DNA of 64,000 nt from a virus, in IMG/VR virus record IMGVR_UViG_3300017706_001340, positions 1 to 64,000 of that record; one strand, 5' to 3'. Shown here in pieces: positions 17,180-57,338 of this stretch. A program made the translations under genes and the position numbers. Numbering within the stretch: position 1 is the first letter of the stretch; every line of letters begins with the position of its first letter. The notes under the pieces were generated by a model. It saw only the letters and a list, made by a program, of their open reading frames with translations, was not told where the DNA came from and did not search any database.

Positions 17180-17464
17180 ATGATCAACCAATTTGATACA
17201 CTAGTCAACGAGATACTCAAGAAAGATCTAAATGTTGGTGATAAAGTCAAAAATATCAACCCTGATTGTGAGCATTATGGTTCTGAGGGTGTGGTGAAGA
17301 AGTTGACTAGAAGACCAGAAGAGAAGAGCGGTGATGTTAAGAATAAACACAATATACCAGGAAGTGATGCTGAATATGAGGTTACAAACGATACAGCCAA
17401 CGCTGACGCTGGGGATAAGCTTAAAAAAAGCTTGGATCAGCTCAAGATTAAATCAAAAACTTAA
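17180..17464 (+). CDS. Hypothetical late protein (KOW/SH3-like)
   Basis: 'LNVGDKVK......YGSEGVV'; TAAGTA 5 nt upstream; leader MINQFDTLVNE. Confidence 0.6.
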   Translation: MINQFDTLVNEILKKDLNVGDKVKNINPDCEHYGSEGVVKKLTRRPEEKSGDVKNKHNIPGSDAEYEVTNDTANADAGDKLKKSLDQLKIKSKT

Positions 17465-17702
17465 GAGCTTTTTGAAACTCCTTTAAAACCCGTCCAGGAT
17501 CCCTAGCTTCTCTACTTAAAACTTGCTGCCCGTCATCATCTTCAGTGTAAAGTGGATCGACTTGTGATTGAAACTCGCGCTTGAAGCTCTCAACAAACTC
17601 TTCACTCAACTCTAACTTTCTAGGAAAGCGTTCACGTACAACTGTTTTGTATAATCCGAAATTTTCGGATATACTCTCTAATGAATCATTAAATTTTTTC
17701 AT
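17448..17702 (-). CDS. Hypothetical late protein
   Basis: TATAAATA at 17713-17720; leader MKKFNDSLESISE. Confidence 0.65.
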   Translation of the reverse strand: MKKFNDSLESISENFGLYKTVVRERFPRKLELSEEFVESFKREFQSQVDPLYTEDDDGQQVLSREARDPGRVLKEFQKALKFLI

Positions 17703-17711
17703 ATAACAACA

Positions 17712-18416
17712 CTATTTATACATCTTCAACTCATCTTCCGAGTTATCCGCGTCACTAACAACTGGCATGCCGAATTGATCATACAGCGTGCTAGTGTCAA
17801 CGAGTGTTTCGTCTTCTCCGTACATACCACCTTTTTCATTGACGTAAAACTCAATCATCTTGATTCTTTCATCTGTTGAACCAAAGATCTCAATCAAAGC
17901 ACTTCGATCTTCCTTTGGAAAGAATCTTTCATCTTCCTTGCTCCAATTAGTGTACATCGCTTTGAAAAAATTGTCAATTTCAGATATGAATTCAGCATCT
18001 GTCTCTCTCTTGCCGTCATCCTCTATTTGCTCATCAGTCACATTCGTGATCGGGATGATAAAAATTATATCCAACAATTTCATCGATTCTCTAACAACCG
18101 GTATACACTTCTCTACAAACAATTCATCAATATCTCCGATGCCTTTGTGATATGCCCATAATGTGTACACGATATTATCCAACGGACACCTATCAAATAT
18201 CACATGATCACTTGCTGAATAATTCTCCATTTGATCAATCATGTGATTCAGGATATTCCATTGTGTCTCTTTGGTGGTCTTCATACTATGAGATTGCTCT
18301 GGAAGTTTGACACGATATGACTCCTCAGGAGTTTTATACATCTCCCAGTTGGTCAAGAAAGCATTCAATAATGTTGTTTTGCCTTGTGCAGCAGTACCGG
18401 AAATAGATAGTCTCAT
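17712..18416 (-). CDS. P-loop nucleotide kinase-like protein (AAA_28/dNMP kinase-like)
   Basis: 'ISGTAAQGKTT', 'FDRCPLD', 'DDGKR'. Confidence 0.75.
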   Translation of the reverse strand: MRLSISGTAAQGKTTLLNAFLTNWEMYKTPEESYRVKLPEQSHSMKTTKETQWNILNHMIDQMENYSASDHVIFDRCPLDNIVYTLWAYHKGIGDIDELFVEKCIPVVRESMKLLDIIFIIPITNVTDEQIEDDGKRETDAEFISEIDNFFKAMYTNWSKEDERFFPKEDRSALIEIFGSTDERIKMIEFYVNEKGGMYGEDETLVDTSTLYDQFGMPVVSDADNSEDELKMYK

Positions 18417-18449
18417 ACTATTATTTACATATTAATCAGCATGTATCAA

Positions 18450-19232
18450 CTACACACCTGTGAGCTTGTCCCAAGCACTGACATGTAACCTGGTCAAACC
18501 AATATAACCATATTTTTTCGCCATATCTAAACTGAATTTGGTTCTCTCGTGAAAATCTTTCTGACTATCCAGACCTGGCATCATCATCACTCGATCATGT
18601 GGAATGTTGAATTTGTTTACAAAATCACGCTCTATTTCCTCCAGACACTCCTCAGTACTGATCACAAACTTGAACCAATAGTTCTTATGACTCATCATTT
18701 TCTCAATTGCCGCCGGATTGATTCTGCGTTGTGCTTCCATTCCACTATTTGCTAGCTTGACACTACAGTTTATCTGATCAAGCATATCAAACAATTCATC
18801 TTGAATCACTATAGTACCGTTAGTTTCGATCTCATCAAATGTATTGAGTTCGATATCATGTTCATCTTTCACGTATTGCTCGAGATGCTTGCTGAACGCC
18901 GGGATCGCGCGTTGATGTTTAGGTATTGTAGGTTCTCCACCTGTCCAGATCAAGTGTATTCTACCCTCGTATATCCACTTGTCTATCTCTTCATGTTCCC
19001 ATTGTTGAATGAGTTTATAAAAAGGTTTCTCTAAACCTCGCTTCCATACAGCTTCAGTATCACACCACCAGGTTGCCTTTCCTTCCTTGACAAGAGAACC
19101 ATTAGCTCCTCCGCACATCAAGTTACACGCTTTGAGTCTTATAAAATATGCTGGATACCCGGTTGTGTGTCCTTCGCATTGCACAGAGTAGAAACTCTCT
19201 GAAATATCTAGTGTTGTTGGTTGTTTGTCCAT
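18450..19232 (-). CDS. queE: 7-carboxy-7-deazaguanine synthase (radical SAM)
   Basis: 'SE.FYSVQCEG..G.PA.FIRL..CNL.C...CDT', 'TGGEP', 'EIETNG', 'KFV', 'RLHV'. Confidence 0.9.
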   Translation of the reverse strand: MDKQPTTLDISESFYSVQCEGHTTGYPAYFIRLKACNLMCGGANGSLVKEGKATWWCDTEAVWKRGLEKPFYKLIQQWEHEEIDKWIYEGRIHLIWTGGEPTIPKHQRAIPAFSKHLEQYVKDEHDIELNTFDEIETNGTIVIQDELFDMLDQINCSVKLANSGMEAQRRINPAAIEKMMSHKNYWFKFVISTEECLEEIERDFVNKFNIPHDRVMMMPGLDSQKDFHERTKFSLDMAKKYGYIGLTRLHVSAWDKLTGV

Positions 19233-19840: not shown

Positions 19841-19846
19841 AGATAT

Positions 19847-19876
19847 ATTATAAACTATATCTTGCTATTTATCCAA
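19847..19876 (-). promoter_or_regulatory. sigma70-type promoter of queD-queE
   Basis: TTGGAT-N18-TATAAT, 6 nt to ATG 19840. Confidence 0.65.
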
Positions 19877-20131: not shown

Positions 20132-20328
20132 TCTTGTTTCTTATCGATAATCTCGATCGCATCTGGAATCATCCGAGCTTGATCCTTGGTTAGTGTGATG
20201 ATGAATCCATCATCATCACGTATTTGTATTTTATCCTTTGACTTATTATAAACCTCCGGACACCGTTTACTGCCACAGCATAATACAACGCTGTTGCTCT
20301 TTGAGTTGTGCTTTAGATCACGTTTCAT
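20128..20328 (-). CDS. Hypothetical protein (CCxxxxCP)
   Basis: 66 aa, ATGA-coupled to the downstream gene. Confidence 0.6.
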   Translation of the reverse strand: MKRDLKHNSKSNSVVLCCGSKRCPEVYNKSKDKIQIRDDDGFIITLTKDQARMIPDAIEIIDKKQE

Positions 20329-20756
20329 AATTCCTCGACCTGTATTATTGTCAATTCTCCAGTTGAACCATCAAACCTAGGAGAGATGTTTGTGACAAAA
20401 TCATTCTCAACATTACCCTGCTGGTCAATCATTTTGACTTGAGCGGATTTTTTGTTTGTCACTATGTTGAACGTTTTGTCATTCTCACTTCCTGTCAAGA
20501 TCGCTCCTCCGTCACCATCGTCACTATCAACTGATTTCAAATTTATCAGATGCGAAAGATCCGCTCCACGACCAGGCTTTTGTAAGAACACTTTGACATT
20601 TTTCAATCCGTTGAATGATGTACCACCTATTGTATCAGGTAGTGCCTCTCTTGTGGCACTTGGCAGCTCACGTTCCACTATCAATCCAGGACTAACCTTC
20701 GAGTAACACTCGAAAAGATTATTAAAATCATTATCATATCTACCAAATCTCTTCAT
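20325..20756 (-). CDS. Hypothetical late protein
   Basis: In the late operon starting at 21830; leader 'DNDFNNLFECY...LIVE'. Confidence 0.6.
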   Translation of the reverse strand: MKRFGRYDNDFNNLFECYSKVSPGLIVERELPSATREALPDTIGGTSFNGLKNVKVFLQKPGRGADLSHLINLKSVDSDDGDGGAILTGSENDKTFNIVTNKKSAQVKMIDQQGNVENDFVTNISPRFDGSTGELTIIQVEEL

Positions 20757-20758
20757 AT

Positions 20759-21415
20759 CTATTCACCGACATACAATCTAACGCTTGTCATCCTTGCATG
20801 TTCAGATTTATTTAGTGCATCAACAAGATCATATGTATCTTTGACTGGACTCGGACTGGATCGCTTGATGATTAGATCATCTGGACCCTTGCCTGTTAGA
20901 TTCATCAATAAAACACTGTACAATTGCCATATTCTCATTGTTTGATCTATGGTTATATGACCGTATCCAGAATTACCGATGTCATTGCTCTGCATGAGTA
21001 TTGAATATACTTCATCTTTGTCAACTCCATCGGGTATATTCTTAGCGATTGTGTTTTTATCTTTTATTGAAATTGCTGCTCTGAATGCTGTTGCACTAGT
21101 CATTCTCGCAACGCCAGCAGTTCGCACTCCGAGTAAATTATCAGAATACTTATCTGATTTTAGTATGTTTGAATATCTCGCGGAATCTGGGACCTCTTTG
21201 GTGTTACCCTTGTTTTGTGTTGATAGTGGTCTTGACTTATCTGACACAAAAATGTACACCTTCTCATTGTTTTTACATGCATCATATGCAGTTGCGTAAT
21301 GACCTATATGAGGAGGCTTGAACGCTCCGGGGAATATACCTACATTATAAACATTTTGATCCTGCTCAGTGATCAATTGTTTGTATACTCTATCGAAGTT
21401 TTTCATGTTTGACAT
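20759..21415 (-). CDS. HIGH-motif cytidyltransferase-like nucleotidyltransferase
   Basis: 'GIFPGAFKPPHIGHY' and 'TSATAFRAAI'; leader MKNFDRVYKQLITE (alternative start 21406). Confidence 0.75.
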   Translation of the reverse strand: MSNMKNFDRVYKQLITEQDQNVYNVGIFPGAFKPPHIGHYATAYDACKNNEKVYIFVSDKSRPLSTQNKGNTKEVPDSARYSNILKSDKYSDNLLGVRTAGVARMTSATAFRAAISIKDKNTIAKNIPDGVDKDEVYSILMQSNDIGNSGYGHITIDQTMRIWQLYSVLLMNLTGKGPDDLIIKRSSPSPVKDTYDLVDALNKSEHARMTSVRLYVGE

Positions 21416-21830
21416 AATCTCTATACATATTTAGTACACCAACTGGATCACATCCACAGCCTTTGAGAAGGTTTTCTAATTGCGTAACATCTGTAGCGTT
21501 GATAATATCATTCATATTATCTGAAATTTTATCATGATAACCTCTAACCATCAGATAATCTACGACATGCTTCTTGAAACCTGATAAAGGATCTTGCTGT
21601 GCTTGTTGACATGGACTCTCTGCTTCGTATTGATCTGGTCCTAAGGACATTGTGTCACCATCCACACCTGGCACGATAGCGATCACATTTCCTAATCCAT
21701 CTTCCTCGAGTACGTACCCGACATAATCATTCATTTCATCCAAACCATTGGCTGGATCATGTTTGATCCGGATCCTTGTGAGATTTGTTTTGTTGAGATT
21801 AGACTCTAATATTGTGTTGAATCTAGACAT
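21390..21830 (-). CDS. Hypothetical late protein
   Basis: TAAATA (21837-21842) 6 nt upstream; leader MSRFNTILE; 'YVGYVLEE'. Confidence 0.7.
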   Translation of the reverse strand: MSRFNTILESNLNKTNLTRIRIKHDPANGLDEMNDYVGYVLEEDGLGNVIAIVPGVDGDTMSLGPDQYEAESPCQQAQQDPLSGFKKHVVDYLMVRGYHDKISDNMNDIINATDVTQLENLLKGCGCDPVGVLNMYRDYVKHEKLR

Positions 21831-22929: not shown

Positions 22930-23060
22930 TTAGCTACGTAGAGTGTTTGTTCGGTGAGTGTACGCATGCGATACATACATTTAACGGTGTTAGCTTGACG
23001 GTAGTATTACTCTCCGCAGCAACTGTTATCTATATAGCGGCAAGAAGTCGTATGAACTAG
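22926..23060 (+). CDS. Small membrane peptide, 44 aa (not in ORF track)
   Basis: ATGA overlap with the folE2 stop. MISYVECLFGECTHAIHTFNGVSLTVVLLSAATVIYIAARSRMN has one hydrophobic helix and fills the gap exactly. Confidence 0.5.
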   Translation: MISYVECLFGECTHAIHTFNGVSLTVVLLSAATVIYIAARSRMN

Positions 23061-23521
23061 TCGGAGTCACCTCGAACCGCAGCTTTAACAGCTTCAGCAG
23101 CCTCGAGTTTCTTTTTTAGCATGTCAACATATACATGTAATTGACCTTGTTGAGCATATTGCTCTATTTTATCGACTGGTGGGTTTAGGATCAAGCTCTT
23201 GAGAGAATCAATTTCAGCATCAACCTCATCTGGCTCACGCTCCATGTCTGAGATTGTATCATCTATAGTATCAACCGGATCACTTATAGTGTCATCACCA
23301 ATTGAACCAATTGAATCTCCTTCTGCTGGTTTGTCATCACTCAGATCAGCAACAATATCATCTGATTCTGAGTTGATCTCTTTTTTCTTACAAACCTTAT
23401 CTTCAGAGCAGTAGTACTCATCATCCTTACAACTATTCTCTGGGGAATGTGTTGTTTCGGTCATTGAGGTGTAAGCCTCTGAAAGTAAATCCCGGTCTTT
23501 TCTCCACTCTTTATTCTGCAT
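23057..23521 (-). CDS. Acidic hypothetical late protein
   Basis: Start MQNKEW at 23521 with TAAATA 5 nt upstream; leader '..DRDLLSEAY'. Confidence 0.7.
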   Translation of the reverse strand: MQNKEWRKDRDLLSEAYTSMTETTHSPENSCKDDEYYCSEDKVCKKKEINSESDDIVADLSDDKPAEGDSIGSIGDDTISDPVDTIDDTISDMEREPDEVDAEIDSLKSLILNPPVDKIEQYAQQGQLHVYVDMLKKKLEAAEAVKAAVRGDSD

Positions 23522-23538
23522 AACAATATTTATGCATC

Positions 23539-23770: not shown

Positions 23771-24046
23771 ATGTCAAATACATCAAAAGATGAGAATCTC
23801 ATGCTAGAGCAGGCTTATATGAGAGTATATGAAGCTAGAATGTCTCAAATTGAGTCTGATGAGAGTGTGGAGGAATCTACTGACGAGGAGCCTGAGAATG
23901 ACAAGATGGCAGCAGCAGTAGCAGTACAGCAAACAGCTGATCAGGTTGAGGATGAAGGTGGAGAGATGACTCAGCAACTACAGAAGGCCAAGCAAGAGTC
24001 TGAAAAGTATGTAAGTAAGAAGATAAGTCAGTTCAAGAAGGACTAA
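23771..24046 (+). CDS. Acidic hypothetical late protein
   Basis: TAAATA 5 nt upstream; leader 'DENLMLEQAYMRVYE'. Confidence 0.7.
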   Translation: MSNTSKDENLMLEQAYMRVYEARMSQIESDESVEESTDEEPENDKMAAAVAVQQTADQVEDEGGEMTQQLQKAKQESEKYVSKKISQFKKD

Positions 24047-25371
24047 CGACTAAACTTCAGACTTCCTAGTATTTGATTCACTGGTGCAAATATCCCGGTG
24101 AACTTATAGATCTTAGGTTTAGATTCACCGTCAGGTGTGTATGTAAACGTCAAACCTTCACTTGGAACGATAGTGTCTAAACCACCTAACTTATTTATCA
24201 TCTTCAATTCATGTTGTAGTTTGTTCATCAACGTTAAATCACCAGTGGCTTCAATCTCTCTTGTGACTTCTTCAATGCCTTGTCTTATCTCTTGTACAGC
24301 CTGTGAGGGATTCAATGTGAGAAGATTTGATATGTTGTTGTTCAACTCAACACCAAGCTTGAGAAACAACGCTTTGAGCGGTTCGATCATGTTATTGTAG
24401 TGTGTTTTGAGTTCCCCACTACGTTCTGTTGCACTTATCCATTGTAAAAATTCTTTGTTATCAACAATGCCTTTAAGTTCCGGCAACCGGCTAAGTGCTA
24501 CGGAATTGTAATCGCTAGGCCTTTTACCGGGTGTCAACATCTTGAATGCCCACCTATATGCGATACGTCTCAACGTGTCTTGTTGAACATTGTAACCAAA
24601 TTCACGCGCTCCATTCTGTATAACATTACTCATGTAACTAATCCAGTAGTCTCCTACGTTGTTGCTAGGATTTAGTTTATGCTCACCCATCAAACCACTC
24701 AGTATACCCATATACTCACCTATAGTTGTCTCAAAATTCTTAACTTCCGGTAACTTCATCAGCGGCATGCTCGTGATTGTGAACTTATCTTGTACGTGTT
24801 GGTTGATTTGCTCGATCATACCCGCCATCATGCGACCATATTCATTGAAATCACCATCTAAAGTGTTGCCATCCTCGTCATATTCTCGGAAGTTGTGTAA
24901 AACGATCAATTCATGGTTATAAGGTATGACATTCACTGTGGCTGGCCAGATTATCTCAATGTTGATCCACCTCTTACCGTCCGCGAACAACAATTGCTTC
25001 TGTCGGTCGCTCAAAGCCATGATAGCCTTCTCTAGATCCTTGGCTGCAAACGTGAACGCTTCTTTCACGTTGTCATTTGGATGTTCTCTGAAGAATTCTG
25101 CAATACCTTTGGCTCCTTTTATAGCATTCTTACCAAAACCACGATAATGTCCTTTGTTACGAGCGAATATCACGCGATTGGCACGATGACTCACTGCTAA
25201 TGCTTGTCCATCGGTCTTTTCTTTGATCTCTCCTTTGATTCCACCGGTCAACGCTTGTTTGATGATGCGTTGCAGGTCTTCGAACTGTAAAGTGTAGTCT
25301 TCATGCACGTTCATCATATGGCCATATGCTCCACCTTCTTCTATCACTCTGTTGTATGTTTTAAAGTTCAT
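24043..25371 (-). CDS. ATP-dependent ligase-like nucleotidyltransferase (DUF6267-like)
   Basis: Motif I 'EKTDG', 'FARNKG', 'NIEII', motif IV 'EGLTF', motif V 'YKFTG'; leader MNFKTYNRVIEE. Confidence 0.6.
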   Translation of the reverse strand: MNFKTYNRVIEEGGAYGHMMNVHEDYTLQFEDLQRIIKQALTGGIKGEIKEKTDGQALAVSHRANRVIFARNKGHYRGFGKNAIKGAKGIAEFFREHPNDNVKEAFTFAAKDLEKAIMALSDRQKQLLFADGKRWINIEIIWPATVNVIPYNHELIVLHNFREYDEDGNTLDGDFNEYGRMMAGMIEQINQHVQDKFTITSMPLMKLPEVKNFETTIGEYMGILSGLMGEHKLNPSNNVGDYWISYMSNVIQNGAREFGYNVQQDTLRRIAYRWAFKMLTPGKRPSDYNSVALSRLPELKGIVDNKEFLQWISATERSGELKTHYNNMIEPLKALFLKLGVELNNNISNLLTLNPSQAVQEIRQGIEEVTREIEATGDLTLMNKLQHELKMINKLGGLDTIVPSEGLTFTYTPDGESKPKIYKFTGIFAPVNQILGSLKFSR

Positions 25372-25372
25372 A

Positions 25373-26896
25373 TTAATTGTTCAATTTAATTGTAAATCCA
25401 CCGCGACCAGGCTCTCCTGCTTTTGCACCAGTGCTAGCACCAATACTGGCATTAGACATCATGAGAACATTAAACGATTTGATTATATTATCACCATATT
25501 CACCGGTCATCATTATTGGATATGTATTAGTATAATTCTCACCGGGTACCTCACACATAGCCGCATAATACGCAAAACCCTCCCCGACAGCATAATCAGT
25601 GATCTGTATCGCACTTAATATACGTAGACCTATCTCTGTGATATGTGTTTGTTGTAATAAGTTATCATGAATAGCTGAACTCAGTATCTTCGATATTGCA
25701 CCCTTCGCGTGTTTTGGTTTACTTGCCATCTTAGAGAGATCAGTAGCGAACGCATCTTGCATCTTTATATCTGTTTTAAATTTTCCGAACCCATATTTTG
25801 ATAGATATGATGAGACGAAGCCAGCACCACCGGTCGGCTTTGATGTACGTGCTCTTAGTGTCTGTTTTATATGATTAAATTTTGTTATGATATCTTCTAG
25901 ATAACCAGCTTTATTATCTACTGTTATTGCATCTATAATCTTCTTGTTATACACTGCCTTGCCACTCAGTTGTTTAGTTATTTTGTTAGCCATCTCTAGA
26001 ATCTCATTATAGTCACAGCAATCAGATCGCTGTAATCGTTGATATATATCCTTCAGTGCTTTATGTACATCCGGTCTGCTTATATAATATGGGTATATGA
26101 CTGAAATATCTCGCATCACCGGTTCTTTTATCTCAAATATCTCATTCTGTCTTCTATTTTCATCAAAATCATCAAAGCGCTTCATGGCGTATTGTTCGAA
26201 CTTACTTGCTCTACCAACCACATCTCCCTTCCCGGGTCTGCCGGCAGCTCCCTTAAGCTCGATCTCTTCACCAGAAGGTAACATCAAGTCACCCTTCTTC
26301 GGGTTAACAGCTTCAGTAAATAAAGTTATTAACACTTCTCCATTACCTACACCGACATTACCTTCAGTGAAATCACTCAACGTGACTAGTGATTTTATAA
26401 ACTCTGCATTACCAATCATCGGCATTGTACTTCCAAACTGATTTACAAATTCATTTATAATATTGAATCTATCTCTCTTCACAAGTGATGTTAAAACCCT
26501 GAGATTCTTGCTCTCTTTTAACTCAATAAGCTCATTAACCTCACTGGTTATTCTATCCACGATACTTATATCGTTGAGATCATACATCGTATCTAACCTC
26601 TCAACTATTCCTGTAGGTATAGCCTTCCTTGCAGTAGCACTATCCCATCCACCAGACGCACACCACCTACCAAACAACTCCGGTAATCTCAACTTAGCTT
26701 CATGCGCACCTAATGATAATGCTAAGTCATCTGACATTTTAAATTTTTGATCTTTTAATTTAGAATCATCAAACTTTATTCCAATTGTAGCCTCGTTTAT
26801 CACCTTATTATATAGGTCCTGTTCACGCTCTGGGTGAGTGTAATGATCTCCTCTTCTAATACCTTTGTAGATATCACCTATCTCCCTGTTACTCAT
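25373..26896 (-). CDS. PD-(D/E)XK nuclease-fold protein
   Basis: 'GVGNGEV.......KKGDL.....EEIELKG..GR' restriction-like E..D..ExK active site. Confidence 0.55.
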   Translation of the reverse strand: MSNREIGDIYKGIRRGDHYTHPEREQDLYNKVINEATIGIKFDDSKLKDQKFKMSDDLALSLGAHEAKLRLPELFGRWCASGGWDSATARKAIPTGIVERLDTMYDLNDISIVDRITSEVNELIELKESKNLRVLTSLVKRDRFNIINEFVNQFGSTMPMIGNAEFIKSLVTLSDFTEGNVGVGNGEVLITLFTEAVNPKKGDLMLPSGEEIELKGAAGRPGKGDVVGRASKFEQYAMKRFDDFDENRRQNEIFEIKEPVMRDISVIYPYYISRPDVHKALKDIYQRLQRSDCCDYNEILEMANKITKQLSGKAVYNKKIIDAITVDNKAGYLEDIITKFNHIKQTLRARTSKPTGGAGFVSSYLSKYGFGKFKTDIKMQDAFATDLSKMASKPKHAKGAISKILSSAIHDNLLQQTHITEIGLRILSAIQITDYAVGEGFAYYAAMCEVPGENYTNTYPIMMTGEYGDNIIKSFNVLMMSNASIGASTGAKAGEPGRGGFTIKLNN

Positions 26897-27243
26897 TACA
26901 AATCAGTATGTGGGTAGTTGTTGCGCACGATGCGACTCACAAGTTCTTGCATCTCTTCTAAATTTTCTGTATCAACTAACTTGGTCAATCTAGCATAGTC
27001 AACATCATCGATGTGTTTGGGAGCCATGATCAAAGCTTTTCTGATCATCTCCACATAATCCACCTTGAGTTTAGCTGTATCATCATCACCAGTATCGTCA
27101 CTCGGTATGGCACTCTCTGGTGTCTCAGTATCTGGTGGTGGAGCAATTCCTTCCGCATCCGGTTCTGCAGGAGGTGGTGGTACTGCTTCTTCTTCGCTCA
27201 GTACACTCAATTTTTCTTCGATCATTGATAAAAATTTGTCCAT
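26896..27243 (-). CDS. Pro/acidic hypothetical late protein
   Basis: TAAATA 5 nt upstream; leader MDKFLSMIEEKLSVLSE. Confidence 0.7.
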   Translation of the reverse strand: MDKFLSMIEEKLSVLSEEEAVPPPPAEPDAEGIAPPPDTETPESAIPSDDTGDDDTAKLKVDYVEMIRKALIMAPKHIDDVDYARLTKLVDTENLEEMQELVSRIVRNNYPHTDL

Positions 27244-27251
27244 AATAGTAT

Positions 27252-27884
27252 TTATTGTGTGTTGTGTCTTTTAGCCCGAGACTTTTCTATGTCACCATAT
27301 TTATTCATGTCATTACCATACAATTGCTTGTCTGTATCATCCATTCGACTCCATTGTGAAGCCACCCATTGATCCCACTTGGCTTGATCACCAGTACCAG
27401 GTCTTCCTTGTTGTTGATTGACTGTCGTTTGTATTCCCATCTGACCTTTCTGGAAGCCTGGTTTGCTAGCTATCTGTTGTTCAGCGTGGTATCGTTGATA
27501 ACCTTTGAGACCTTTCCAGTGTCTATATTTTGGGTCACTGTTTGCTTGTTGTTCCAACTCTTGATTCACATCTGACCACTGTGCTTGTTGAGCTGATGTC
27601 ATCCGTTCCCATGAGCTCTTGATTCTCTTCTCAAGATCAATATCACCCTGATTTTTACCAACATCACCTAGATCTTGAACAACACCACCCACAGCACCAA
27701 TCATGTCTCCACTCTTGGCTTTGTCCTTAAACGCCTTGCCAGCAGCAGCGAATTGATTCATACCACGCCCGATATTACCCATTATACCCTCTAGTATTTG
27801 ATTGGTAGTGACTCGAGGAGCAGTTTCTTCTGGGAAATATTTTCCTTTCATCTCATGTAGTTTATTGATGAACTTGTCAGTCAT
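27252..27884 (-). CDS. Gln/Gly-rich hypothetical late protein
   Basis: TATAAATA (27890-27897) 5 nt upstream; leader MTDKFINKLHE. Confidence 0.7.
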   Translation of the reverse strand: MTDKFINKLHEMKGKYFPEETAPRVTTNQILEGIMGNIGRGMNQFAAAGKAFKDKAKSGDMIGAVGGVVQDLGDVGKNQGDIDLEKRIKSSWERMTSAQQAQWSDVNQELEQQANSDPKYRHWKGLKGYQRYHAEQQIASKPGFQKGQMGIQTTVNQQQGRPGTGDQAKWDQWVASQWSRMDDTDKQLYGNDMNKYGDIEKSRAKRHNTQ

Positions 27885-28997: not shown

Positions 28998-29270
28998 TTA
29001 CATACTTGTATCGAAAGGTCTACGTTGTGTTGGTATCAAAACATCTAAACTACCATCCTTTTTCTTGGTTTTTTTAGATTTACGCTTGTCTTTCTTACCA
29101 CCTGTAGGTGTTCTCATGTCTCCAGGTGCATAAAAATCTGTGACTGGTGTGACAGCACCTCCATTACCCATGCTCCCTGCATCACCAAACACACCACCAG
29201 CACCTGCTGAATTGTCTTCTGATATATGCTTCATGAAGCATGTTTTATAATAATTTGTTTGCTTTTCCAT
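28998..29270 (-). CDS. Hypothetical late protein with basic C-terminus
   Basis: Probable start MEKQTNYY at 29270; 'DFYAPGDMRTP' and a Lys-rich tail. Confidence 0.55.
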   Translation of the reverse strand: MEKQTNYYKTCFMKHISEDNSAGAGGVFGDAGSMGNGGAVTPVTDFYAPGDMRTPTGGKKDKRKSKKTKKKDGSLDVLIPTQRRPFDTSM

Positions 29271-29699: not shown

Positions 29700-31153
29700 C
29701 GAAATCTACAGTAACATTTGATTATGATGCGAGAAAAAGATTGGCTCTCATGTCGGGAGATCACTTCGAGGAGATACGAGAACACTTTTCAGTTCATAAT
29801 GATGCTGCAAAGTTTGCTAGATACAAGAACAGGTTCATACCAAGCAGACGTTATGTTATAACACCTCAAGGTCGGTTCGAACCCGGACTCTATCACACCA
29901 TCAAGCAGTATATCCGGGACAACACCGAAGGGTGTAAGATACATATCACTGATAGCTTACGTGAGATAGTCAACCCGGGATATGACAGAGTGTATCATGA
30001 ATCCCGTGCCAAGCTGAGCCTGGACTTACGAGACTATCAACAGAGCATTGTGAGTGCTTGTTTGAAATATGGTCGTGGTGTGACTATACTGGCAACCGCT
30101 GGAGGAAAAACGCTAACAATTGCTAGCTTAATACAGAGTGTTTATCAGAGCTGCAAGCAATTGAAGTGTTTAATTTTGGTCCCGGATCTCGGTCTTGTGA
30201 ACCAAACTAGTAGTGACTTTCATGAGTATAGTACAACATTCCTTCACAGTAAGTGGACCGGTAGTGATAAATTAAACCTGGGTAGCAACGTAATAATTGC
30301 CAACATGGGAATTTTACAGAGTAGTAAATCTGAGACAGATTGGATCAAGGACATAGACATGCTGATAATTGACGAAGTGCACAAATTACGTAAAGATAAC
30401 AAGATAAACAAATTGATCAAGACTATTCGAACACCACATAAGTTTGGGTTTACTGGGACCATGCCTGAACAGCAGCTCGATCAATGGAATATAATAGGTA
30501 AGATAGGCAAAATACTATATGAACGTAACAGTTATCAATTACGTGAACAGCAGTATGTAGCGAAGGCACGAGTACAGGTTATAAAAATACTATACAATGA
30601 AAAACCACCGGTGTTCCCTGCTGATAGATTTGACCCTTCCGCACGATTTCGACGAGAGCAACAATTCATCGCGAAAAATACATTCCGGAACAGTGTCATA
30701 TCAAAACTGTCCGGGTCGTTTGATAACAATTGTTTGATAATGATAGATTATATTGAACATGGTGAAGAGTTGTACGGTATATTGCGTTCACAATGTCCTC
30801 AAAAGCAGGTGTTTTTCATCCGAGGTGACGTAGCAGTTGAAGAGCGAGACAAAGTTAAAAAATTAATGGAAAAAACAAGTGATGTGGTGTGTATTGCTAT
30901 ATCAAAAATATTTTCTACAGGAATTAACATCAAAAACCTCCATTATATTGTATTTGCAGGAGGTGGAAAGGCTAAGGTCAAAATAATACAGAGTATTGGT
31001 AGAGGTTTAAGGTTGCATAAGGATAAAAAAGGTGTTATAATTATAGACATAGCAGATATGTTACATTACGGATCACAACACTATACAAAGAGACTTAGTT
31101 TATATAAAGGAGAGAAAATTGATTATGGTATCAAAAAAATCGAACAAAAGTAA
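29696..31153 (+). CDS. uvsW: UvsW SF2 DNA helicase
   Basis: 'LRDYQ', 'ATAGGKT', 'DEVH', 'GFTGT', 'FSTGINI', 'QSIGRGLR'. Confidence 0.93.
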   Translation: MTKSTVTFDYDARKRLALMSGDHFEEIREHFSVHNDAAKFARYKNRFIPSRRYVITPQGRFEPGLYHTIKQYIRDNTEGCKIHITDSLREIVNPGYDRVYHESRAKLSLDLRDYQQSIVSACLKYGRGVTILATAGGKTLTIASLIQSVYQSCKQLKCLILVPDLGLVNQTSSDFHEYSTTFLHSKWTGSDKLNLGSNVIIANMGILQSSKSETDWIKDIDMLIIDEVHKLRKDNKINKLIKTIRTPHKFGFTGTMPEQQLDQWNIIGKIGKILYERNSYQLREQQYVAKARVQVIKILYNEKPPVFPADRFDPSARFRREQQFIAKNTFRNSVISKLSGSFDNNCLIMIDYIEHGEELYGILRSQCPQKQVFFIRGDVAVEERDKVKKLMEKTSDVVCIAISKIFSTGINIKNLHYIVFAGGGKAKVKIIQSIGRGLRLHKDKKGVIIIDIADMLHYGSQHYTKRLSLYKGEKIDYGIKKIEQK

Positions 31154-31577
31154 AAAACCGAAAAAGCCGCATTACGTCAACTCGAAAGAGTTCACTGAAG
31201 ATATAAAAGAGTACTACGGTAGTGGTGATGATGATATTGGTGAGAAACTTGGAGAAAGTATTTTTAAAATAGCAAAGGGTTTGAGTTATGCACCTAATTT
31301 CATCAACTATTCATACAAAGATGATATGGTTGGAGATGCAATTGTTAAGATGTTCTCAGCTCTACAGAGTAAGAAGTTCAATCTCGAGACCGGTAACAAT
31401 CCATTCTCTTACTTCACAACAATTGCTTTTCATGCTTTTATCAACAGAATCAAAAAAGAAAAGAAACAGAGACAGGTTGTGAGTGATTATCAAGAGATGG
31501 TATATGAGGAGCTTGCCAGTGAGTATCAAATAGGCAATCAGACTCAATCTAGTGATAGTATAGAGAATGGTTCTTAA
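31125..31577 (+). CDS. gp55: Late-transcription sigma factor (gp55)
   Basis: 'HYVNSKEF', 'IA.GLS..PNF.NYSYKDDM..D', 'NPFSYFTTIAFHAFINRIKKEKKQ'. Confidence 0.93.
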   Translation: MVSKKSNKSKKPKKPHYVNSKEFTEDIKEYYGSGDDDIGEKLGESIFKIAKGLSYAPNFINYSYKDDMVGDAIVKMFSALQSKKFNLETGNNPFSYFTTIAFHAFINRIKKEKKQRQVVSDYQEMVYEELASEYQIGNQTQSSDSIENGS

Positions 31578-39070: not shown

Positions 39071-40142
39071 TAAAGATGTTCTCAAAGTTTTCGAAAAGCT
39101 CGAGAAACTAAATCCAGAAGCGAAATTTCTATCTGAAAGTGCACTAAGCACAGTAAGTGATTATGTTGACACAGGATGTATGGTGTTGAATGCTATCATT
39201 TCCGGTAGTTTGTATGGAGGTGTACCTATGGGTCGTATCACAGGTTTCAGTGGACCTAGTGCCGCGGGAAAAACATACATTATAAACAAGATACTAGCTA
39301 ATGGTCAGAAGAAGGGTATGATACCCGTGATATTTGATACTGAAGCTGCTGTTGATGCTAGTAGTACAGTAGGTGTGGGTTTAGATAACGAACAAGTCAA
39401 ATATGTGCCTGTTCAGACAGTAGAGGATTGTAGGAATCAAATATCTGCTTTCTTGGACGGTGTGATCGATACTAAGATGAGAGATAAATTCATCATCAGT
39501 ATTGACAGTCTCGGGAACCTTGCAAGTCAAAAAGAGATTGATGATGCCGAGAAAGGCAAAACAGCAATGGACATGGGAACAAGAGCCAAAGGTCTCAAGA
39601 GTATGATGAGATTACTAACATTCAAAGCAGCTCAAGCTGGTGTCACTATATTATTTAGTAATCATACATATGATGACCCAAGCGCCATGTTCCCTACGCT
39701 CGTCAAGGCACAGAGTGGCGGTAAAGGTCCAGTGTATCTCGCAAGTGTACTTGTACAACTCGCTAAGCGTGATGAAAAGCATGATGCTAACAGAGGTGAT
39801 TCGGATGAATTGCTACCAGAAGCCAATAAAGTTAGTGGAACAACATTACGTGCACTGACGGTCAAGAATCGATTTGTACCGCCATTCCTAGAATGTGAGG
39901 CGTATCTAAACTTCCGTAAAGGTCTTGATAAATACAGCGGACTTAAGGAGATGGCTGTAAATCATGGAGTGATAATTCAGACTGGTAGTACATTCACCAT
40001 GCCAGAATCAAAAGAAGGTGCACCTGGTAAAAAGTTAGGGTATTACAAGAACTGGAAGAGTGATGAATCACTATGGGAAGAGTATATACTTCCGGAGTTA
40101 GAAAAAAAGCTCAAGGCGCAATATAGCTATAGTGTGGATTAA
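39054..40142 (+). CDS. uvsX: RecA-like recombinase UvsX
   Basis: 'DTG...LNAIISG', 'GPSAAGKT', 'FDTE', 'IDSLGNL', 'NHTY', 'SGG', 'KNRF'. Confidence 0.93.
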   Translation: MMTKIDKDVLKVFEKLEKLNPEAKFLSESALSTVSDYVDTGCMVLNAIISGSLYGGVPMGRITGFSGPSAAGKTYIINKILANGQKKGMIPVIFDTEAAVDASSTVGVGLDNEQVKYVPVQTVEDCRNQISAFLDGVIDTKMRDKFIISIDSLGNLASQKEIDDAEKGKTAMDMGTRAKGLKSMMRLLTFKAAQAGVTILFSNHTYDDPSAMFPTLVKAQSGGKGPVYLASVLVQLAKRDEKHDANRGDSDELLPEANKVSGTTLRALTVKNRFVPPFLECEAYLNFRKGLDKYSGLKEMAVNHGVIIQTGSTFTMPESKEGAPGKKLGYYKNWKSDESLWEEYILPELEKKLKAQYSYSVD

Positions 40143-41713: not shown

Positions 41714-41722
41714 ATGTGTTAT

Positions 41723-42436: not shown

Positions 42437-42439
42437 TAT

Positions 42440-51935: not shown

Positions 51936-52949
51936 ATGATTATACCAGAAGAATTCATAATTCAAAAATTCTATCAACATGCCGGTTATCCCAAGCATGT
52001 ACGATCAACCAATACTTACATGGGAGGTTGTCCGATATGTAGAGAAGGTAAGAGTTGGGGAAGAAAGTCTAGATTATATTATATACCTAAAGATGGTGTG
52101 ATATGTTGTCATAATTGTGGTTGGTATGGTAAGCCATTGCAATGGATATTAGAGGTTGAAAAAATACCATATGATGAATTAATAAAACAGATAGATAAGT
52201 GTGATTATACATATGGAGTACCTGTTGAAGAGAAAGTGAAGCAACAGACAGCGGATTTACCGCTGGATAGTATAAATTTATTTGACAAGTCACAATTGTC
52301 ATATTATGTTAATGAGAGTATCGTCCGGCAAGCCGCAGAAACTATCGTTAAACGTCGGTTAAATACAGCAATTAACAAACCAAAATCAATATATGTCTCA
52401 CTAAATGACCCGGTGCATAAAAACAGACTGGTTATACCCTTCTATGATAAAACGAGGTCCATTCTGTTCTATCAGACGCGAACGATACTAGCGAGTGACG
52501 AGAGACCCAAATATTTATCTAAACAAAATAGTGAGAAGACACTGTTTAATTATGAGCAAATTGATTCTGGTACTGATAATGTATTTATAACTGAAGGACC
52601 GATAGATTCATTCTTCATCCGGAATTCTGTTGCAGTAGCTGGTATACAAGAGAAGAGTAAGAACACATTCACTACAACACAACAATCACAGATCGATCGA
52701 CTGTTTTTAATGCAAAAGGTATGGGTGCTGGATAGTCAGTGGTTAGACTCTGCTAGTAGAATGAAAAGCGAGATGTTACTAAAATCAGATAACTGTGTAT
52801 TTATATGGCCTAAAGATATAGGTATGAAGTTTAAGGATATTAATGACATGTGCATACACTTTAAAATAGATGAGATCTCTAGCAATTTCTTGCTGGAAAA
52901 CACTTACTGCGGACTTAAAGGTATTGTGAAACTTCGACAGGTCAGATAG
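51936..52949 (+). CDS. gp61: DNA primase (gp61)
   Basis: Zn ribbon 'CPICRE...CHNCG', 'RLVIPF', 'PKY', TOPRIM 'TEGPIDS', 'KDIND'. Confidence 0.93.
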   Translation: MIIPEEFIIQKFYQHAGYPKHVRSTNTYMGGCPICREGKSWGRKSRLYYIPKDGVICCHNCGWYGKPLQWILEVEKIPYDELIKQIDKCDYTYGVPVEEKVKQQTADLPLDSINLFDKSQLSYYVNESIVRQAAETIVKRRLNTAINKPKSIYVSLNDPVHKNRLVIPFYDKTRSILFYQTRTILASDERPKYLSKQNSEKTLFNYEQIDSGTDNVFITEGPIDSFFIRNSVAVAGIQEKSKNTFTTTQQSQIDRLFLMQKVWVLDSQWLDSASRMKSEMLLKSDNCVFIWPKDIGMKFKDINDMCIHFKIDEISSNFLLENTYCGLKGIVKLRQVR

Positions 52950-53391
52950 ATTCTGAACCAGACTCCTTACGTCTTGCTAATAGTAGATATTGTTTGAGAG
53001 ATTCACTCAACCCGGATAGATCTTGTGCTAACCTTGATATTTTTTTACTCTCACTACGTTGTATATCTGTGAGTATACTGTCACAATCTGCAGAATTAAT
53101 TGTAAAGTTTATTGATCCTTGATCTGTACCGTTGAGATAATCAATAAAATTTTCAACTTCACCTATCCATGTGTTTAATGTCTGTATGGTCCTAGCCGTC
53201 TGTTGTTGTTTCAATGCAATCTCCGGATTGTCCGGGATGGCCAGCTGATCAACGTTACCGGCATCCATTTGTGCACCTGCCGCGGCAACCTCTGCTTCTG
53301 GATCCTCCGGTAAAGGTGTTATTGGACCTGGCTGGAGATCTTCAGGAGCCTCCTCTATTATACTGAAAAATTTTCTTTGAAATACGTTCAT
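52942..53391 (-). CDS. Hypothetical late protein
   Basis: TAAATA at 53402-53407; leader MNVFQRKFFSIIEE. Confidence 0.7.
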   Translation of the reverse strand: MNVFQRKFFSIIEEAPEDLQPGPITPLPEDPEAEVAAAGAQMDAGNVDQLAIPDNPEIALKQQQTARTIQTLNTWIGEVENFIDYLNGTDQGSINFTINSADCDSILTDIQRSESKKISRLAQDLSGLSESLKQYLLLARRKESGSESI

Positions 53392-53434
53392 GATCTATGT
53401 TTATTTATGCTAGTTGTATAAGTATTTATTGAAC

Positions 53435-53869
53435 ATGTCACAAGAAAAAAACAAAAAAGAAACATTATTCGAAGATCTTCAAGCTGGATCAAATAACTTC
53501 ATGGGTGTAGGTAAGGGTCCTGGTCAATCAGCTATGCAATTGAAGCCGGCTAAGATAACGTTGATGGATCTAATAAGCCAGGCGAAAGATTGGGAGAATC
53601 AGATGGGTAAGGCACCCAACCGATTACCATACCCGTTGCAGGATGGTCTTGGTGATCAATTAGGGGATTTATATGTTAAATCAGTCGATATAAAGAATAA
53701 AGTTGCAGAAAGTGGAAAATTTAGTATAATTAAAGATAATGAAAAGGCATACAAAGCTGTACAGCGTATACATAAAAAATTATCTGCTATTGGCGCCGCG
53801 ATACAAGATGTTGTTGATGATATTGACAACCTTGGAGTTGGTACCAGTACTACTGAATACCATGCATGA
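53435..53869 (+). CDS. Hypothetical (probably late) protein
   Basis: Start MSQEKN at 53435; TAAGTA at 53419; leader ends '...TLFE'. Confidence 0.65.
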   Translation: MSQEKNKKETLFEDLQAGSNNFMGVGKGPGQSAMQLKPAKITLMDLISQAKDWENQMGKAPNRLPYPLQDGLGDQLGDLYVKSVDIKNKVAESGKFSIIKDNEKAYKAVQRIHKKLSAIGAAIQDVVDDIDNLGVGTSTTEYHA

Positions 53870-55306: not shown

Positions 55307-56028
55307 TCATCATATCCACCGTATATATCGTCATAGTCCCCATATACACTATAATCAAAAATATTCCGGCCTTGCCGGTCAATATCATTGAAATATAGAC
55401 TATCATCTTCCATCTGCTCATCACCACTCAATCCACCGTGGTAAGTATCATCAGTTGGTTGCTGCAACCCAGGTTCTTTATCAATACCGAGCTCATAACT
55501 ATAGTCGAAACGCTTGCCTTTTATCAGCCAGACATAATGACCTAGTAATGGATTGAGTTGTTCAACATCTTGGTCCAATCTTTCAGTTATTTCGAACTTT
55601 TTAGCACCTCTCCCACCTGGTCTGGATGATCCGAATTCACTGAGCTCTATAACATCGCCAGCATTTGGTTCTGGATTAGGATTATCCTCAGAGCTCATAG
55701 CTAATGTGTAACTCTCGATGGGTATAAACCCAGTCAGTTCATCATCAGCCATAAGACCAAACTTTTGAAGTACAACTGAATTTTCATTCAATGTCATAGC
55801 AAATATCAATTTCTTTGGATCTTGAAACTGTTGAGCAGGTGACTCTCCGTATAGTGGATCAACATTCTGTAGTGTGGTGCCATTAACATAATAGTCTACT
55901 ATTGTACCATATTGATAGATCTGCTCGACCCACCACCCTTTGTAATTGTTTATCTCATTGCAATTAGCATGCTTGTCTAAAAATCGCAAACTATTACTAT
56001 GCTTGAATATATCATCAATCTCACTCAT
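55303..56028 (-). CDS. Neck/head-tail adaptor protein (gp14-like)
   Basis: 'EQI..YG..V.Y', 'D.LYGE', 'KFGL..DDE', 'P..GD.I', 'FEIT', 'YVW', 'F.YS.E'. Confidence 0.75.
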   Translation of the reverse strand: MSEIDDIFKHSNSLRFLDKHANCNEINNYKGWWVEQIYQYGTIVDYYVNGTTLQNVDPLYGESPAQQFQDPKKLIFAMTLNENSVVLQKFGLMADDELTGFIPIESYTLAMSSEDNPNPEPNAGDVIELSEFGSSRPGGRGAKKFEITERLDQDVEQLNPLLGHYVWLIKGKRFDYSYELGIDKEPGLQQPTDDTYHGGLSGDEQMEDDSLYFNDIDRQGRNIFDYSVYGDYDDIYGGYDD

Positions 56029-56407
56029 ATCTTTTGAGAATATAACAATCTTTGACAGGGTCCCAAATTATACCAACACCTGAGAATAATGTCTTCGGTT
56101 TATCTTTAGGTAGTTCCTTTATTTTATAATTCTTCATTATGTGCTTTATATCAACATCGGATAACATTTTCATTTTAGATGTACCATTACGGAGAGCCTC
56201 GATCTTGTGATTCAATTCTCCAGCGAATGCGAACTCACCCCCACCGGTATGTCGCCCCTGATACCTCTTGGCAACTTGATGTTGATTCATCGCTCCACCA
56301 CCTCTTGACACCTTACGATGCCATGGACTCTTCGCATTATCTCTCTTTCGTTGCTGATAATCCTGAAACTCAAGGATCACGTGAAATCTATCTCTATAAA
56401 CTGACAT
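56021..56407 (-). CDS. Basic hypothetical late protein
   Basis: TATAAATA (56414-56421) 6 nt before ATG 56407; leader MSVYRDRFHVILE. Confidence 0.65.
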   Translation of the reverse strand: MSVYRDRFHVILEFQDYQQRKRDNAKSPWHRKVSRGGGAMNQHQVAKRYQGRHTGGGEFAFAGELNHKIEALRNGTSKMKMLSDVDIKHIMKNYKIKELPKDKPKTLFSGVGIIWDPVKDCYILKRYE

Positions 56408-56420
56408 CAACAGTATTTAT

Positions 56421-56452
56421 AAAAAAAGCCGTTCAAATGAACGGCTCTTTTT
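56421..56452. terminator. Rho-independent terminator (bidirectional form)
   Basis: A7-flanked AGCCGTTCA-AA-TGAACGGCT stem with a T-run on the other side. Confidence 0.8.
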
Positions 56453-56477
56453 GTGATTTGGGGGGTTAAATTGAAAA

Positions 56478-57338
56478 TTAATCTCCGATCGCCTTACTTT
56501 TAGGGTTGTTGATCTTGTTGCTACCGGATCCAGTGTTACCTGCATCTGGATGTGTACGATCACCATGTCCACCTAAAGGTTTTGGATCTGGATCTTCTTT
56601 TACAGTACCACCGTCAGCAGTTCCACCGTCAGTACTACCTGTTTTTGAGCTCTTAACCTTATTACTCTTGTTACCTGCGTAAGGATGTTGACGATCACCG
56701 TGTCCACCTAGGGGCTTTGGATCTGGCTCACTAACAACACTATCACCTAACATCTCATCATCATTACCAAAAGGATTATCACTCTCACTATCCTCTAGTT
56801 CATCACCAAGCTCATCTTCACTATCTTCTAGTTGATCCATCAAAGCTTCATGAAGCTTTTCTGCTAGGTCACGAGGAAGACTAATTGTAATTTCATCACC
56901 GCCGATTTCAAGCTCGTCATCACCGAACTCTTCATCGCCTCCTGTGTCTTCATCACCCATTCCACCTATATCGGCAAAAGGATCATCACCTTCCATGATT
57001 GTTGAGTATAATTTGTCAAAGATATTTGTAGGTTCGTTGCTCATAATTGTAGAAGTATTTATTTGCTCCTTGGCAATTTTCCCGTGTTTTTCTTTGTTTT
57101 CTTTTAATCTATCACTTATTTTTTTCATGTAATAGTCACTATCCTCACCAGAATTCTCTGGAGTCACTACATCTTCGACACCATCTGGAGTGTTCTCCTC
57201 TGGTTTCAAATCACCTGCAAGCTCAGAATCTCCGAGTGCTGATGGACAATCTCCGGATTTCCAGACCTTGTTATCTTCATTTTCTGTTAACAAGTCGTAC
57301 GCTTGCTCAATGTTCTTGATATCTCTTGACTCATTCAC
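56478..57338 (-). CDS. Highly acidic late protein (scaffold/core-like)
   Basis: GTG start with TAAATA 5 nt upstream; D/E-rich with several [LI]xE sites; duplicated PDPKPLGGHGDRxHP motif. Confidence 0.7.
   Translation of the reverse strand: MNESRDIKNIEQAYDLLTENEDNKVWKSGDCPSALGDSELAGDLKPEENTPDGVEDVVTPENSGEDSDYYMKKISDRLKENKEKHGKIAKEQINTSTIMSNEPTNIFDKLYSTIMEGDDPFADIGGMGDEDTGGDEEFGDDELEIGGDEITISLPRDLAEKLHEALMDQLEDSEDELGDELEDSESDNPFGNDDEMLGDSVVSEPDPKPLGGHGDRQHPYAGNKSNKVKSSKTGSTDGGTADGGTVKEDPDPKPLGGHGDRTHPDAGNTGSGSNKINNPKSKAIGD

Follow-up and report, generated by a model that had tools for sequence, protein, structure and literature searches.

Candidate T4-type capsid-targeting leaders in the late gene products of an uncultured phage distantly related to T4

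In bacteriophage T4, a tag is known to direct only a handful of the phage's own proteins into the head. The capsid-targeting sequences (CTSs) encoded in the T4 genome (NC_000866) read MKTYQEFIAE in ipII and ipIII, MKTFKEF...ITE in ipI, and MELITELFDE in alt, and the leaders of gp22 and gp24 read MLKEQLIAE and MAKINELLRE. The first ten residues of IPIII are enough for packaging, gp21 cleaves after L/I-x-E, and mutagenesis of IPIII has assigned targeting mainly to residues 4 and 7 and processing to residues 8 and 10 (PMC9026906). In T-even phages, the internal proteins are diverse and have only the tag in common (PMC3012670). The present analysis concerns a window of 64,000 nucleotides (nt), the first 64 kb of the 87,769-bp virus contig IMGVR_UViG_3300017706_001340 from IMG/VR, in which an initial annotation had proposed that about 17 dispersed late proteins carry leaders of this kind. 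The 17 N-termini quoted in that annotation all translate exactly at their coordinates and strands. The count, however, is too high; instead, there is, as judged from sequence patterns, about an even chance that some 9–12 late proteins of this phage carry T4-type capsid-targeting propeptides that are cleaved by a protease, and the set of proteins injected by the phage is probably unusually large.

The contig has a CheckV completeness estimate of 41% (about 88 kb out of roughly 210 kb), and a megablast search against cultured phages returned no match, leaving the phage without a close cultured relative. It encodes T4-type structural and packaging proteins, namely the tail sheath protein (gp18), gp19, TerL (gp17), and a gp14-like neck protein, together with UvsW, gp46/47, UvsX, a gp41-like helicase, and a gp32-like single-stranded DNA-binding protein. 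The DNA polymerase is 31% identical to cyanophage gp43. A gp55-like late sigma factor is encoded at 31125..31577 (+ strand; phrog_234, late sigma transcription factor, E 1.5e-32), and this factor would read the TAAATA promoters described below. Judging from these core replication, late-transcription, packaging, and tail genes, the phage is a distant (far-) T4-like myovirus. The longest related contig found in a metagenome scan is 102 kb, and contigs of 160–238 kb in public assemblies contain close homologues, with 62–88% identity, of the ligase and nucleotidyltransferase discussed below. In the pelagiphage HTVC008M, the gp21 protease starts MKLITEELTDVQLIAE and an adjacent small head-module protein reads MEENKTIVSE followed by A, indicating that the [ILV]-x-E type of site persists in far-T4 phages.

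According to the proposed mechanism, each leader (9–19 residues) would form an amphipathic helix with a Phe (rarely Tyr) at position 4–5 and hydrophobic side chains one and two turns further on. This helix would anchor the protein on the scaffolding core of the prohead during assembly, a gp21-type prohead protease would cut after the Glu of the terminal hydrophobic-x-Glu, and the mature protein would remain in the head and exit with the DNA at infection. Core binding, cleavage, packaging, and injection, as well as the existence of a gp21-type protease in the lineage, are inferred here. The T4-type reading is based on the T4-like nature of the phage, the match of the leaders to the T4 determinants, the conservation of the proposed P1 Glu, and the small size and strongly acidic or basic character of many of the proteins that bear the leaders (the carriers).

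Similar to the CTSs of T4 IPI, IPII, IPIII, and Alt, the leaders are N-terminal tags of 10–19 residues on otherwise unrelated late proteins, have an aromatic residue at position 4, a hydrophobic residue at position 7 or 8, and an [IL]-x-E end, and are attached to small acidic or basic cargo plus an enzyme. Twelve of the proteins end the leader in [ILV]-x-E at residues 9–19, a feature that alone does not discriminate (20% of control genes have it), and ten carriers have Phe or Tyr at residue 3–5 with a hydrophobic residue 3–4 positions further on. Near copies of the T4 tag occur here and in relatives (MDKFLSMIEE, MKLPSFREFIAE, MKTFLTMIEQ, and MITFKEFIEVIEE, compared to MKTYQEFIAE and MKTFKEF in T4). 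Many carriers are small and strongly acidic (isoelectric point, pI, 4.2–4.7) or basic (pI 9.2–9.9), as are the core and internal proteins of T4, and searches of PHROGs and Pfam returned almost no family matches for them. In contrast to T4, which has four such proteins in 169 kb, 9–12 candidates are found here in 88 kb of an approximately 210-kb genome, and the leaders often exceed the T4 tag by one helical turn (F4...L12-x-E14). Furthermore, the leaders evolve faster than the mature part of the protein, whereas the tag is the conserved part in the T-even phages (PMC3012670), and a nucleotidyltransferase and an RNA-ligase-fold protein are among the candidate carriers.

The frequency of the leader pattern was assessed with one mechanical gene-calling pipeline, which yielded 98 genes on the contig and 678 genes in four control phages (100 kb of T4, 50 kb of T5, the pelagiphage HTVC008M, and the Microcystis phage Mel-JY01). 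The F-type pattern M.{1,3}F.{2,10}[ILV].E matches 11/98 genes here compared to 16/678 control genes, an approximately five-fold excess with a p value (1.7e-4) that is optimistic since the motif was defined after seeing the data. Two of the eleven matches are clear false positives (the amidotransferase encoded at 42440, which starts MCGIFG..., and the gene at 13354, which belongs to a sugar island), which equals the background expectation of about two and thus leaves about nine F-type cases in excess. The more permissive pattern M.{1,4}[FY].{2,10}[ILV].E matches 15/98 genes here and 41/678 control genes (p 0.002). An expectation-maximization motif finder applied to the first 20 residues overfitted and was uninformative. 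The early replication enzymes had been described as lacking the pattern; this is true of the F-type leader and does not extend to the bare [ILV]-x-E. An all-against-all BLAST comparison excluded paralogy as the origin of the common leaders, as the carriers show no similarity to one another apart from three weakly paralogous proteins of a proposed second, 'D-x-x-L-x-E-A-Y' class. The carriers are consequently unrelated, as had been claimed, with the exception of these three. Given these three weak paralogues and a pattern that is not enriched over the controls, the second class itself was abandoned as a separate type of leader.

Several observations weigh against the T4-type reading. Its main rival is a somewhat unlikely alternative, in which each leader is an amphipathic N-terminal helix of the ordinary kind, part of the protein's own fold or oligomer interface, resembles the T4 tag and the other leaders partly through chance and partly through post hoc fitting, and undergoes neither cleavage nor packaging. 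The bare [ILV]-x-E, initially taken as the distinguishing motif, ends at residue 6–16 in 24/98 genes (24%) compared to 136/678 control genes (20%; Fisher p 0.19), so that it is generic and carries no statistical weight. These 24 genes exceed the 12.9 expected after shuffling residues 2–20, and the same excess is seen in T4 (44/158 versus 28.3) and T5 (16/85 versus 10.5); across all phages tested the motif lies near the N-terminus in 17–28% of genes, always above the shuffles. It is nonetheless more common behind late promoters on the contig (13/32 genes) than elsewhere (11/66; p 0.011). The same regular expression also hits three untagged T4 proteins (Rnl1, lysozyme e, and gp2), and the N-terminus of Rnl1 (MQELFNNLME) is not known to be cleaved. 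The lack of enrichment of the second class and the ancestral helices of the two enzymes, which lie at internal positions in fusion proteins (see below), point in the same direction. The canonical site is lost in two orthologues from the related sequence G003, which read MTFDKSISKHEK and HLMCE. Finally, a Pfam search for gp21, gp23, and gp20 (PF03420, PF07068, PF07230) found none of them on the 41%-complete contig or on five related contigs. Since the same profile search does detect the Peptidase_S77 protease in T4, HTVC008M, and Mel-JY01, the head module is placed on the missing 59% of the genome.

An ordinary structural helix accounts less well for the five-fold excess of the F-type pattern, which is concentrated on orphan late genes, and for the way in which the leaders are conserved. 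Fourteen related loci (approximately 75–92% identity) provided 77 distinct orthologue N-termini for 16 candidates. The proposed P1 Glu is kept in 73/77 of these N-termini (95%) and the P3 hydrophobic residue (I, L, V, M, or F) in 74/77 (96%), while other Glu residues in the same regions are kept in 118/201 (59%; Fisher p 3e-10, a value inflated by the phylogenetic relatedness of the sequences). The remaining leader residues are 55% identical compared to 67% for the next 20 residues, and the boundary after the Glu is often sharp (e.g., in 57338, 17702, and 29270; genes are named here by the position of their start codon). The leader Phe is invariant in the orthologues and ≥90% conserved in the nucleotidyltransferase family. 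A drifting leader that ends in a fixed Glu and is followed by sharply conserved residues argues against a helix that merely forms part of the fold.

The assignment of the candidates as late genes is based on a promoter consensus or on a place in a late operon. TAAATA or TAAGTA ends 3–6 nt 5' of the start codon in 12 candidates and 10–20 nt upstream in four more, with TAAGTA in place of TAAATA in three of the candidate promoters. The claim that late promoters precede the candidate open reading frames (ORFs) is thus borne out, with the consensus 3–20 nt upstream or the gene within a late operon. The position of TAAATA also supports the shorter starts that had been chosen for 41671, 23521, and 57338 (GTG). 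The promoters typically end about 5 nt ahead of the start codon, at a fixed spacing and without a Shine-Dalgarno sequence (e.g., at 27249, 27890, 23527, and 57344), which implies that the late mRNAs are leaderless or nearly so; leaders of the GGAGG type are found instead at the sheath (59728) and tube (62859) genes. As nearly all carriers are leaderless in this sense, with TAAATA about 5 nt before ATG, the shared N-terminal pattern might be thought to arise from translation constraints, that is, from selection at the RNA level on the 5' ends of leaderless mRNAs. This explanation is highly improbable. Synonymous codons vary freely within the leaders (TTT/TTC, GAA/GAG, ATA/ATC), and at least seven other leaderless late genes are without the pattern (five with known functions outside the head, namely PhoH, a kinase, RusA, a glycosyltransferase, and Hint, plus 65545 and 74956), indicating that the signal is at the level of the protein rather than the RNA and essentially excluding an RNA-level origin. 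In addition, genes within operons that have no promoter of their own (25371 and 20756) still show the pattern.

The leaders could also be a real common signal that serves as an uncleaved docking peptide, directed to a chaperone, the membrane, the neck, or the baseplate, or as the site of another protease. A conserved pattern on unrelated late proteins requires just one common partner, and some carriers adjoin neck and terminase genes rather than head genes. We nevertheless regard this explanation as decidedly unlikely, since an invariant terminal Glu with a hydrophobic residue two positions before it is the exact cleavage logo of gp21 (PMC9026906), positions 4, 7/8, and P3/P1 agree with the determinants mapped in T4, and no other partner or protease is evident on the contig.

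Other described systems share parts of the T4-type arrangement. The T4 core proteins gp22, gp67, and gp68 are likewise late, acidic, and of low complexity and carry an [LI]-x-E site at the N-terminus, and the products of 26896–27243, 52942–53391, and 56478–57338 resemble them in their pI values (4.2–4.3) and N-termini. They differ in that there is no sequence similarity, the candidates do not adjoin portal, protease, or capsid genes, and the repeated internal cleavage sites of gp22 are not evident in the candidates. In the phages 201phi2-1 and phiKZ, about 19 head proteins each are cut after Glu by a gp21-related protease (PMC9026906). Inner-body and ejection proteins that undergo proteolytic processing in the giant phages phiKZ, 201phi2-1, and SPN3US are thus comparable as a large set of Glu-cleaved head proteins. 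In contrast, the phiKZ-type motif is S/A/G-x-E with a small P3 residue, whereas P3 here is I, L, V, M, or F in nearly all orthologue N-termini, and the core genes of the present phage are of the T4 type. The 'polyvalent' packaged effectors (Iyer et al. 2017, PMC5512222) are similar in that enzymatic domains are delivered with the DNA and in that nucleotidyltransferase and ligase-like domains are fused in multidomain proteins of other phages. Unlike these effectors, the enzymes here are encoded by separate genes, each with its own leader, and show no fusion to MuF, portal, or metallopeptidase domains.

The strongest candidates for T4-type leaders are 17702, 17180, 21830, 27243, 29270, 53391, 57338, and 23521. 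The 17702 gene (17448..17702, − strand, TAAATA 10 nt upstream) encodes an 84-residue orphan with the leader MKKFNDSLESISE followed by NFGLYKTVVRER and without a PHROG or Pfam family. In four distinct orthologues F4, L8, [IV]11, and E13 are invariant while the other leader residues vary, giving the consensus MK[KQN]FN[DE]xL[ED]x[IV]xE followed by a conserved N[FY]GLxKTVVRER. The 17180 gene (17180..17464, + strand) encodes a 94-residue orphan that reads MINQFDTLVNE then ILKKD, with TAAGTA ending 5 nt before ATG. Its orthologues have the leaders MDQFDTLVNE, MSLFQERFNKHIQE, and MKLPSFREFIAE, the last of which is a near copy of the T4 ipII/ipIII tag MKTYQEFIAE. A third orphan, the 146-residue acidic product of 21830 (21390..21830, − strand, TAAATA ending 6 nt before ATG), has the leader MSRFNTILE followed by SNLNKTNL, and the form MS[RK]FN[TS][IL][LM]E is conserved across six orthologues.

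The 27243 gene (26896..27243, − strand, TAAATA ending 5 nt before ATG) encodes a very acidic (pI 4.2), proline-rich protein of 115 residues with the leader MDKFLSMIEEKLSVLSE followed by EE. Within its start, MDKFLSMIEE, the residues F4, M7, I8, and E10 are spaced as in the T4 tag MKTYQEFIAE. L15-x-E17 is kept in 9/9 orthologues and E10 in 6/9, and the orthologue from the related locus L015 starts MKTFLTMIEQ. The product of 29270 (28998..29270, − strand) is a basic (pI 9.6) protein of 90 residues that begins with the leader MEKQTNYYKTCFMKHISE, then DNSAGAGGVFGD, and ends in a lysine-rich tail. This protein had been listed among the weaker cases. It is strong instead, as both leader and boundary are conserved in a family of 32 clusters (52–93% identical) that read MK[LIF]FExxFxxxLxE, then [DN]NxAGAGGVFGD, and end in a lysine-rich tail, and the protein resembles a T4 internal protein.

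Two further strong candidates lie near the neck and terminase genes. The 53391 gene (52942..53391, − strand, TAAATA 10 nt upstream) adjoins these genes and encodes an acidic (pI 4.3) protein of 149 residues whose leader, MNVFQRKFFSIIEE, precedes APEDLQPGP; in G003 the orthologue reads MKLFESKFFNILEE then APEDL. The 57338 gene (56478..57338, − strand) is divergent from and adjoins TerL, and TAAATA ends 5 nt before its GTG start codon. Its product of 286 residues is very acidic (pI 4.2, 25% Asp+Glu), begins with the leader VNESRDIKNIEQAYDLLTE followed by NEDNKVWKSGDCPSA, and found no family match in profile searches. Compared to G003, identity is 58% in the leader and rises to 100% over the first 15 residues past the Glu. 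The protein contains two copies of a repeat of about 24 residues (EDPDPKPLGGHGDRxHPxAGN...), and it could be a scaffold-like or core protein. The product of 23521 (23057..23521, − strand, TAAATA ending 5 nt before ATG), which is weakly paralogous to that of 56478–57338 (E 6e-4), is a very acidic protein of 154 residues that starts MQNKEWRKDRDLLSE, followed by AYTSMTE and then TTH. The Glu of its LLSE (residue 15) and the Glu of the next [IVM]-x-E, before TTH, are each found in 9/9 orthologues.

The cases 27884, 56407, 21406, 25371, and, outside the window, 77306 are graded as moderate candidates. The 27884 gene (27252..27884, − strand, TAAATA ending 5 nt before ATG) encodes a basic (pI 9.2), Gln/Gly-rich orphan of 210 residues that begins MTDKFINKLHE followed by M. 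The Glu is present in 4/6 orthologues, two others have YL[NH]E at residues 17–18, and the G003 orthologue is without the site. The 56407 gene (56021..56407, − strand), located between the genes for the 286-residue acidic protein and the gp14-like neck protein, encodes a basic (pI 9.9) orphan of 128 residues with the leader MSVYRDRFHVILE followed by FQDYQQRKR. Its G003 orthologue reads MMLYEKLFTNHLMCE then FKDFQQQKR, which keeps the Glu and places Met at P3. The additional case beyond the window, MTSRFDTIFE, is encoded at contig positions 76731–77306 (− strand).

The remaining two moderate candidates are the enzymes, and here the evidence is divided. The 21406 gene (20759..21406, − strand) encodes a cytidylyltransferase-like nucleotidyltransferase of 215 residues, in which the leader MKNFDRVYKQLITE is followed by QDQNVYNVGIFPGAFKPPHIGH and PF01467 begins at residue 24. 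In the AlphaFold2 model, residues 2–14 form a helix with a predicted local distance difference test (pLDDT) score of about 60, and the core scores >90 from residue 21. E14 is invariant and F4 is ≥90% conserved in 55 homologues. An exhaustive profile search identified about 70 representatives with an extension of 15–30 residues that nearly always ends in [LI][LI]-x-E, and about 30 distant representatives that begin at strand β1 with no helix. The 25371 gene (24043..25371, − strand), the third gene of the late operon starting at 27243, encodes an RNA-ligase-fold protein of 442 residues whose motif I is KEKTDGQ and whose leader, MNFKTYNRVIEE, precedes GGAYGHM. A sequence search of the PDB gave no match for this protein, and the best Foldseek match is T4 Rnl1 (2c5u, E 1.8e-4, probability 0.97); in the AlphaFold2 model, residues 1–17 have a pLDDT <50. 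The proposed cleavage Glu is immediately followed by GG-x-x-GH, in which G13, G14, G17, and H18 are invariant across 48 homologues although AlphaFold2 models this region with low confidence; residues 13–19 may act as an N-terminal functional element that becomes exposed only upon processing. AlphaFold2 does not pack either leader confidently onto its core, and this, together with the nucleotidyltransferase relatives that lack the helix, speaks against an ordinary helix of the fold.

Relatives of both enzymes point the other way. In multidomain relatives of the nucleotidyltransferase the same helix is internal and precedes the domain, and the 943 members of the ligase family always have [ILV][ILV]xE-GG before the core, at an internal position in forms of 550–720 residues. 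Both domains are fused in a 640-residue protein of Mel-JY01 (PP395634, 11243-13162), with the junction reading NIIAE then GGLGGHM. Mel-JY01 is a T4-like phage with an S77 protease, and, in favor of the T4-type reading, the fused gene is part of a block immediately upstream of the genes for terminase, portal, protease, and capsid. Because the helix-Glu element is ancestral and internal in fused and multidomain proteins, it could be a plain part of the domain in both enzymes. The unrelatedness of the carriers and the approximately 30 nucleotidyltransferase relatives without the helix would fit a transferable add-on, yet in both enzyme families the helix is ancestral and internal. From these comparisons, the element is judged to be old and optional in the families rather than a freshly grafted cassette, and it may be either a structural helix or a processing site at the domain boundaries of packaged polyproteins. 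The ligase and nucleotidyltransferase cases are consequently both equivocal. The two enzymes are encoded here by separate genes, 2.6 kb apart, and are fused in Mel-JY01 and in metagenomic proteins of 550–720 residues; the fusion suggests that they are a functional pair. The capsid-targeting interpretation put forward in the initial annotation stands as the best explanation found for a core of about 9–12 proteins, and is unsupported for the bare motif, for the full count of 17, or, in the two enzymes, for a 'late promoter + leader' cassette that can be grafted onto new genes.

A fuller version of the T4-type reading would hold that the lineage has generalized the T4 tag into a loader for at least a dozen proteins, including an enzyme pair preloaded for the earliest stage of infection, and that the fused forms are head-packaged polyproteins cut at their domain boundaries. 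The enzyme pair would then act in RNA repair or nucleotide modification, and the hydrophobic-hydrophobic-x-Glu before each domain would be a site for the prohead protease. This version is unlikely. The mechanism of head loading is known from T4; what would be new is how many proteins it serves, and which, in an uncultured far-T4 lineage. If the T4-type reading is correct, the phage loads about three times as many kinds of protein as T4 does, including enzymes, and these proteins would be prime candidates for counter-defense functions because they act before any phage gene is expressed. It would also allow injected proteins to be predicted by a sequence rule in the uncultured T4-like phages, which are very abundant, and would extend the range of natural tags beyond the single one, from T4, that is used in phage engineering.

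Four of the remaining N-termini (20756, 23771, 41671, and 53435) are weak candidates. The 23771 gene (23771..24046, + strand, TAAATA ending 5 nt before ATG) encodes an acidic protein of 91 residues that starts MSNTSKDENLMLE followed by QAYMRVYE; [ML]LE is found in 5/6 orthologues, and the second Glu is not conserved. The 143-residue product of 20756 (20325..20756, − strand), a downstream gene in its operon without its own promoter, starts MKRFGRYDNDFNNLFE followed by CY, and the motif is inseparable from the fold because the entire N-terminus is conserved in six orthologues. The 510-residue product of 41671 (40139..41671, − strand, TAAATA ending 5 nt before this ATG) starts MYRKKYNTSDNDLIWE followed by S and has one orthologue, from G003, reading ...RDNDIIWE then A. 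The 144-residue product of 53435 (53435..53869, + strand, TAAGTA upstream) starts MSQEKNKKETLFE followed by DLQAGSNN, compared to MKQKNDKKQAIFE followed by DLQTGSNN in G003, and was already regarded as a weaker case at the outset. In the 507-residue product of 26896 (25373..26896, − strand, in the late operon), the proposed site (VINE at residue 35) is unsupported, as the surrounding region is not conserved. Its relatives have NLYE at residue 11, where this protein reads DIYK. Searches gave no family match and no PDB sequence match for this protein.

Additional genes on the contig share individual features with those above or lie among them. A 58-residue ORF (MNTHDTIIALFEQYVSE...) at 23539-23715 (− strand) has TAAATA ending 6 nt before its ATG, and it is probably this ORF, rather than an overlapping 64-residue ORF at 23511-23705, that is the real gene. 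Hydrophobic-x-Glu sites occur at its residues 12 and 17. Beyond the window, an ORF of >879 residues behind a TAAGTA promoter (contig 85132-87769) runs off the contig end, and a pattern search among IMG/VR viral contigs found no relatives of it. Within the window, the regions 17712-19840 and 41714-43845 contain genes for QueE-like, QueD-like, and QueC-like enzymes, an amidotransferase, and a glycosyltransferase. This gene set suggests a DNA modification of the 7-deazaguanine type, and the leader-bearing genes are interspersed among its members.

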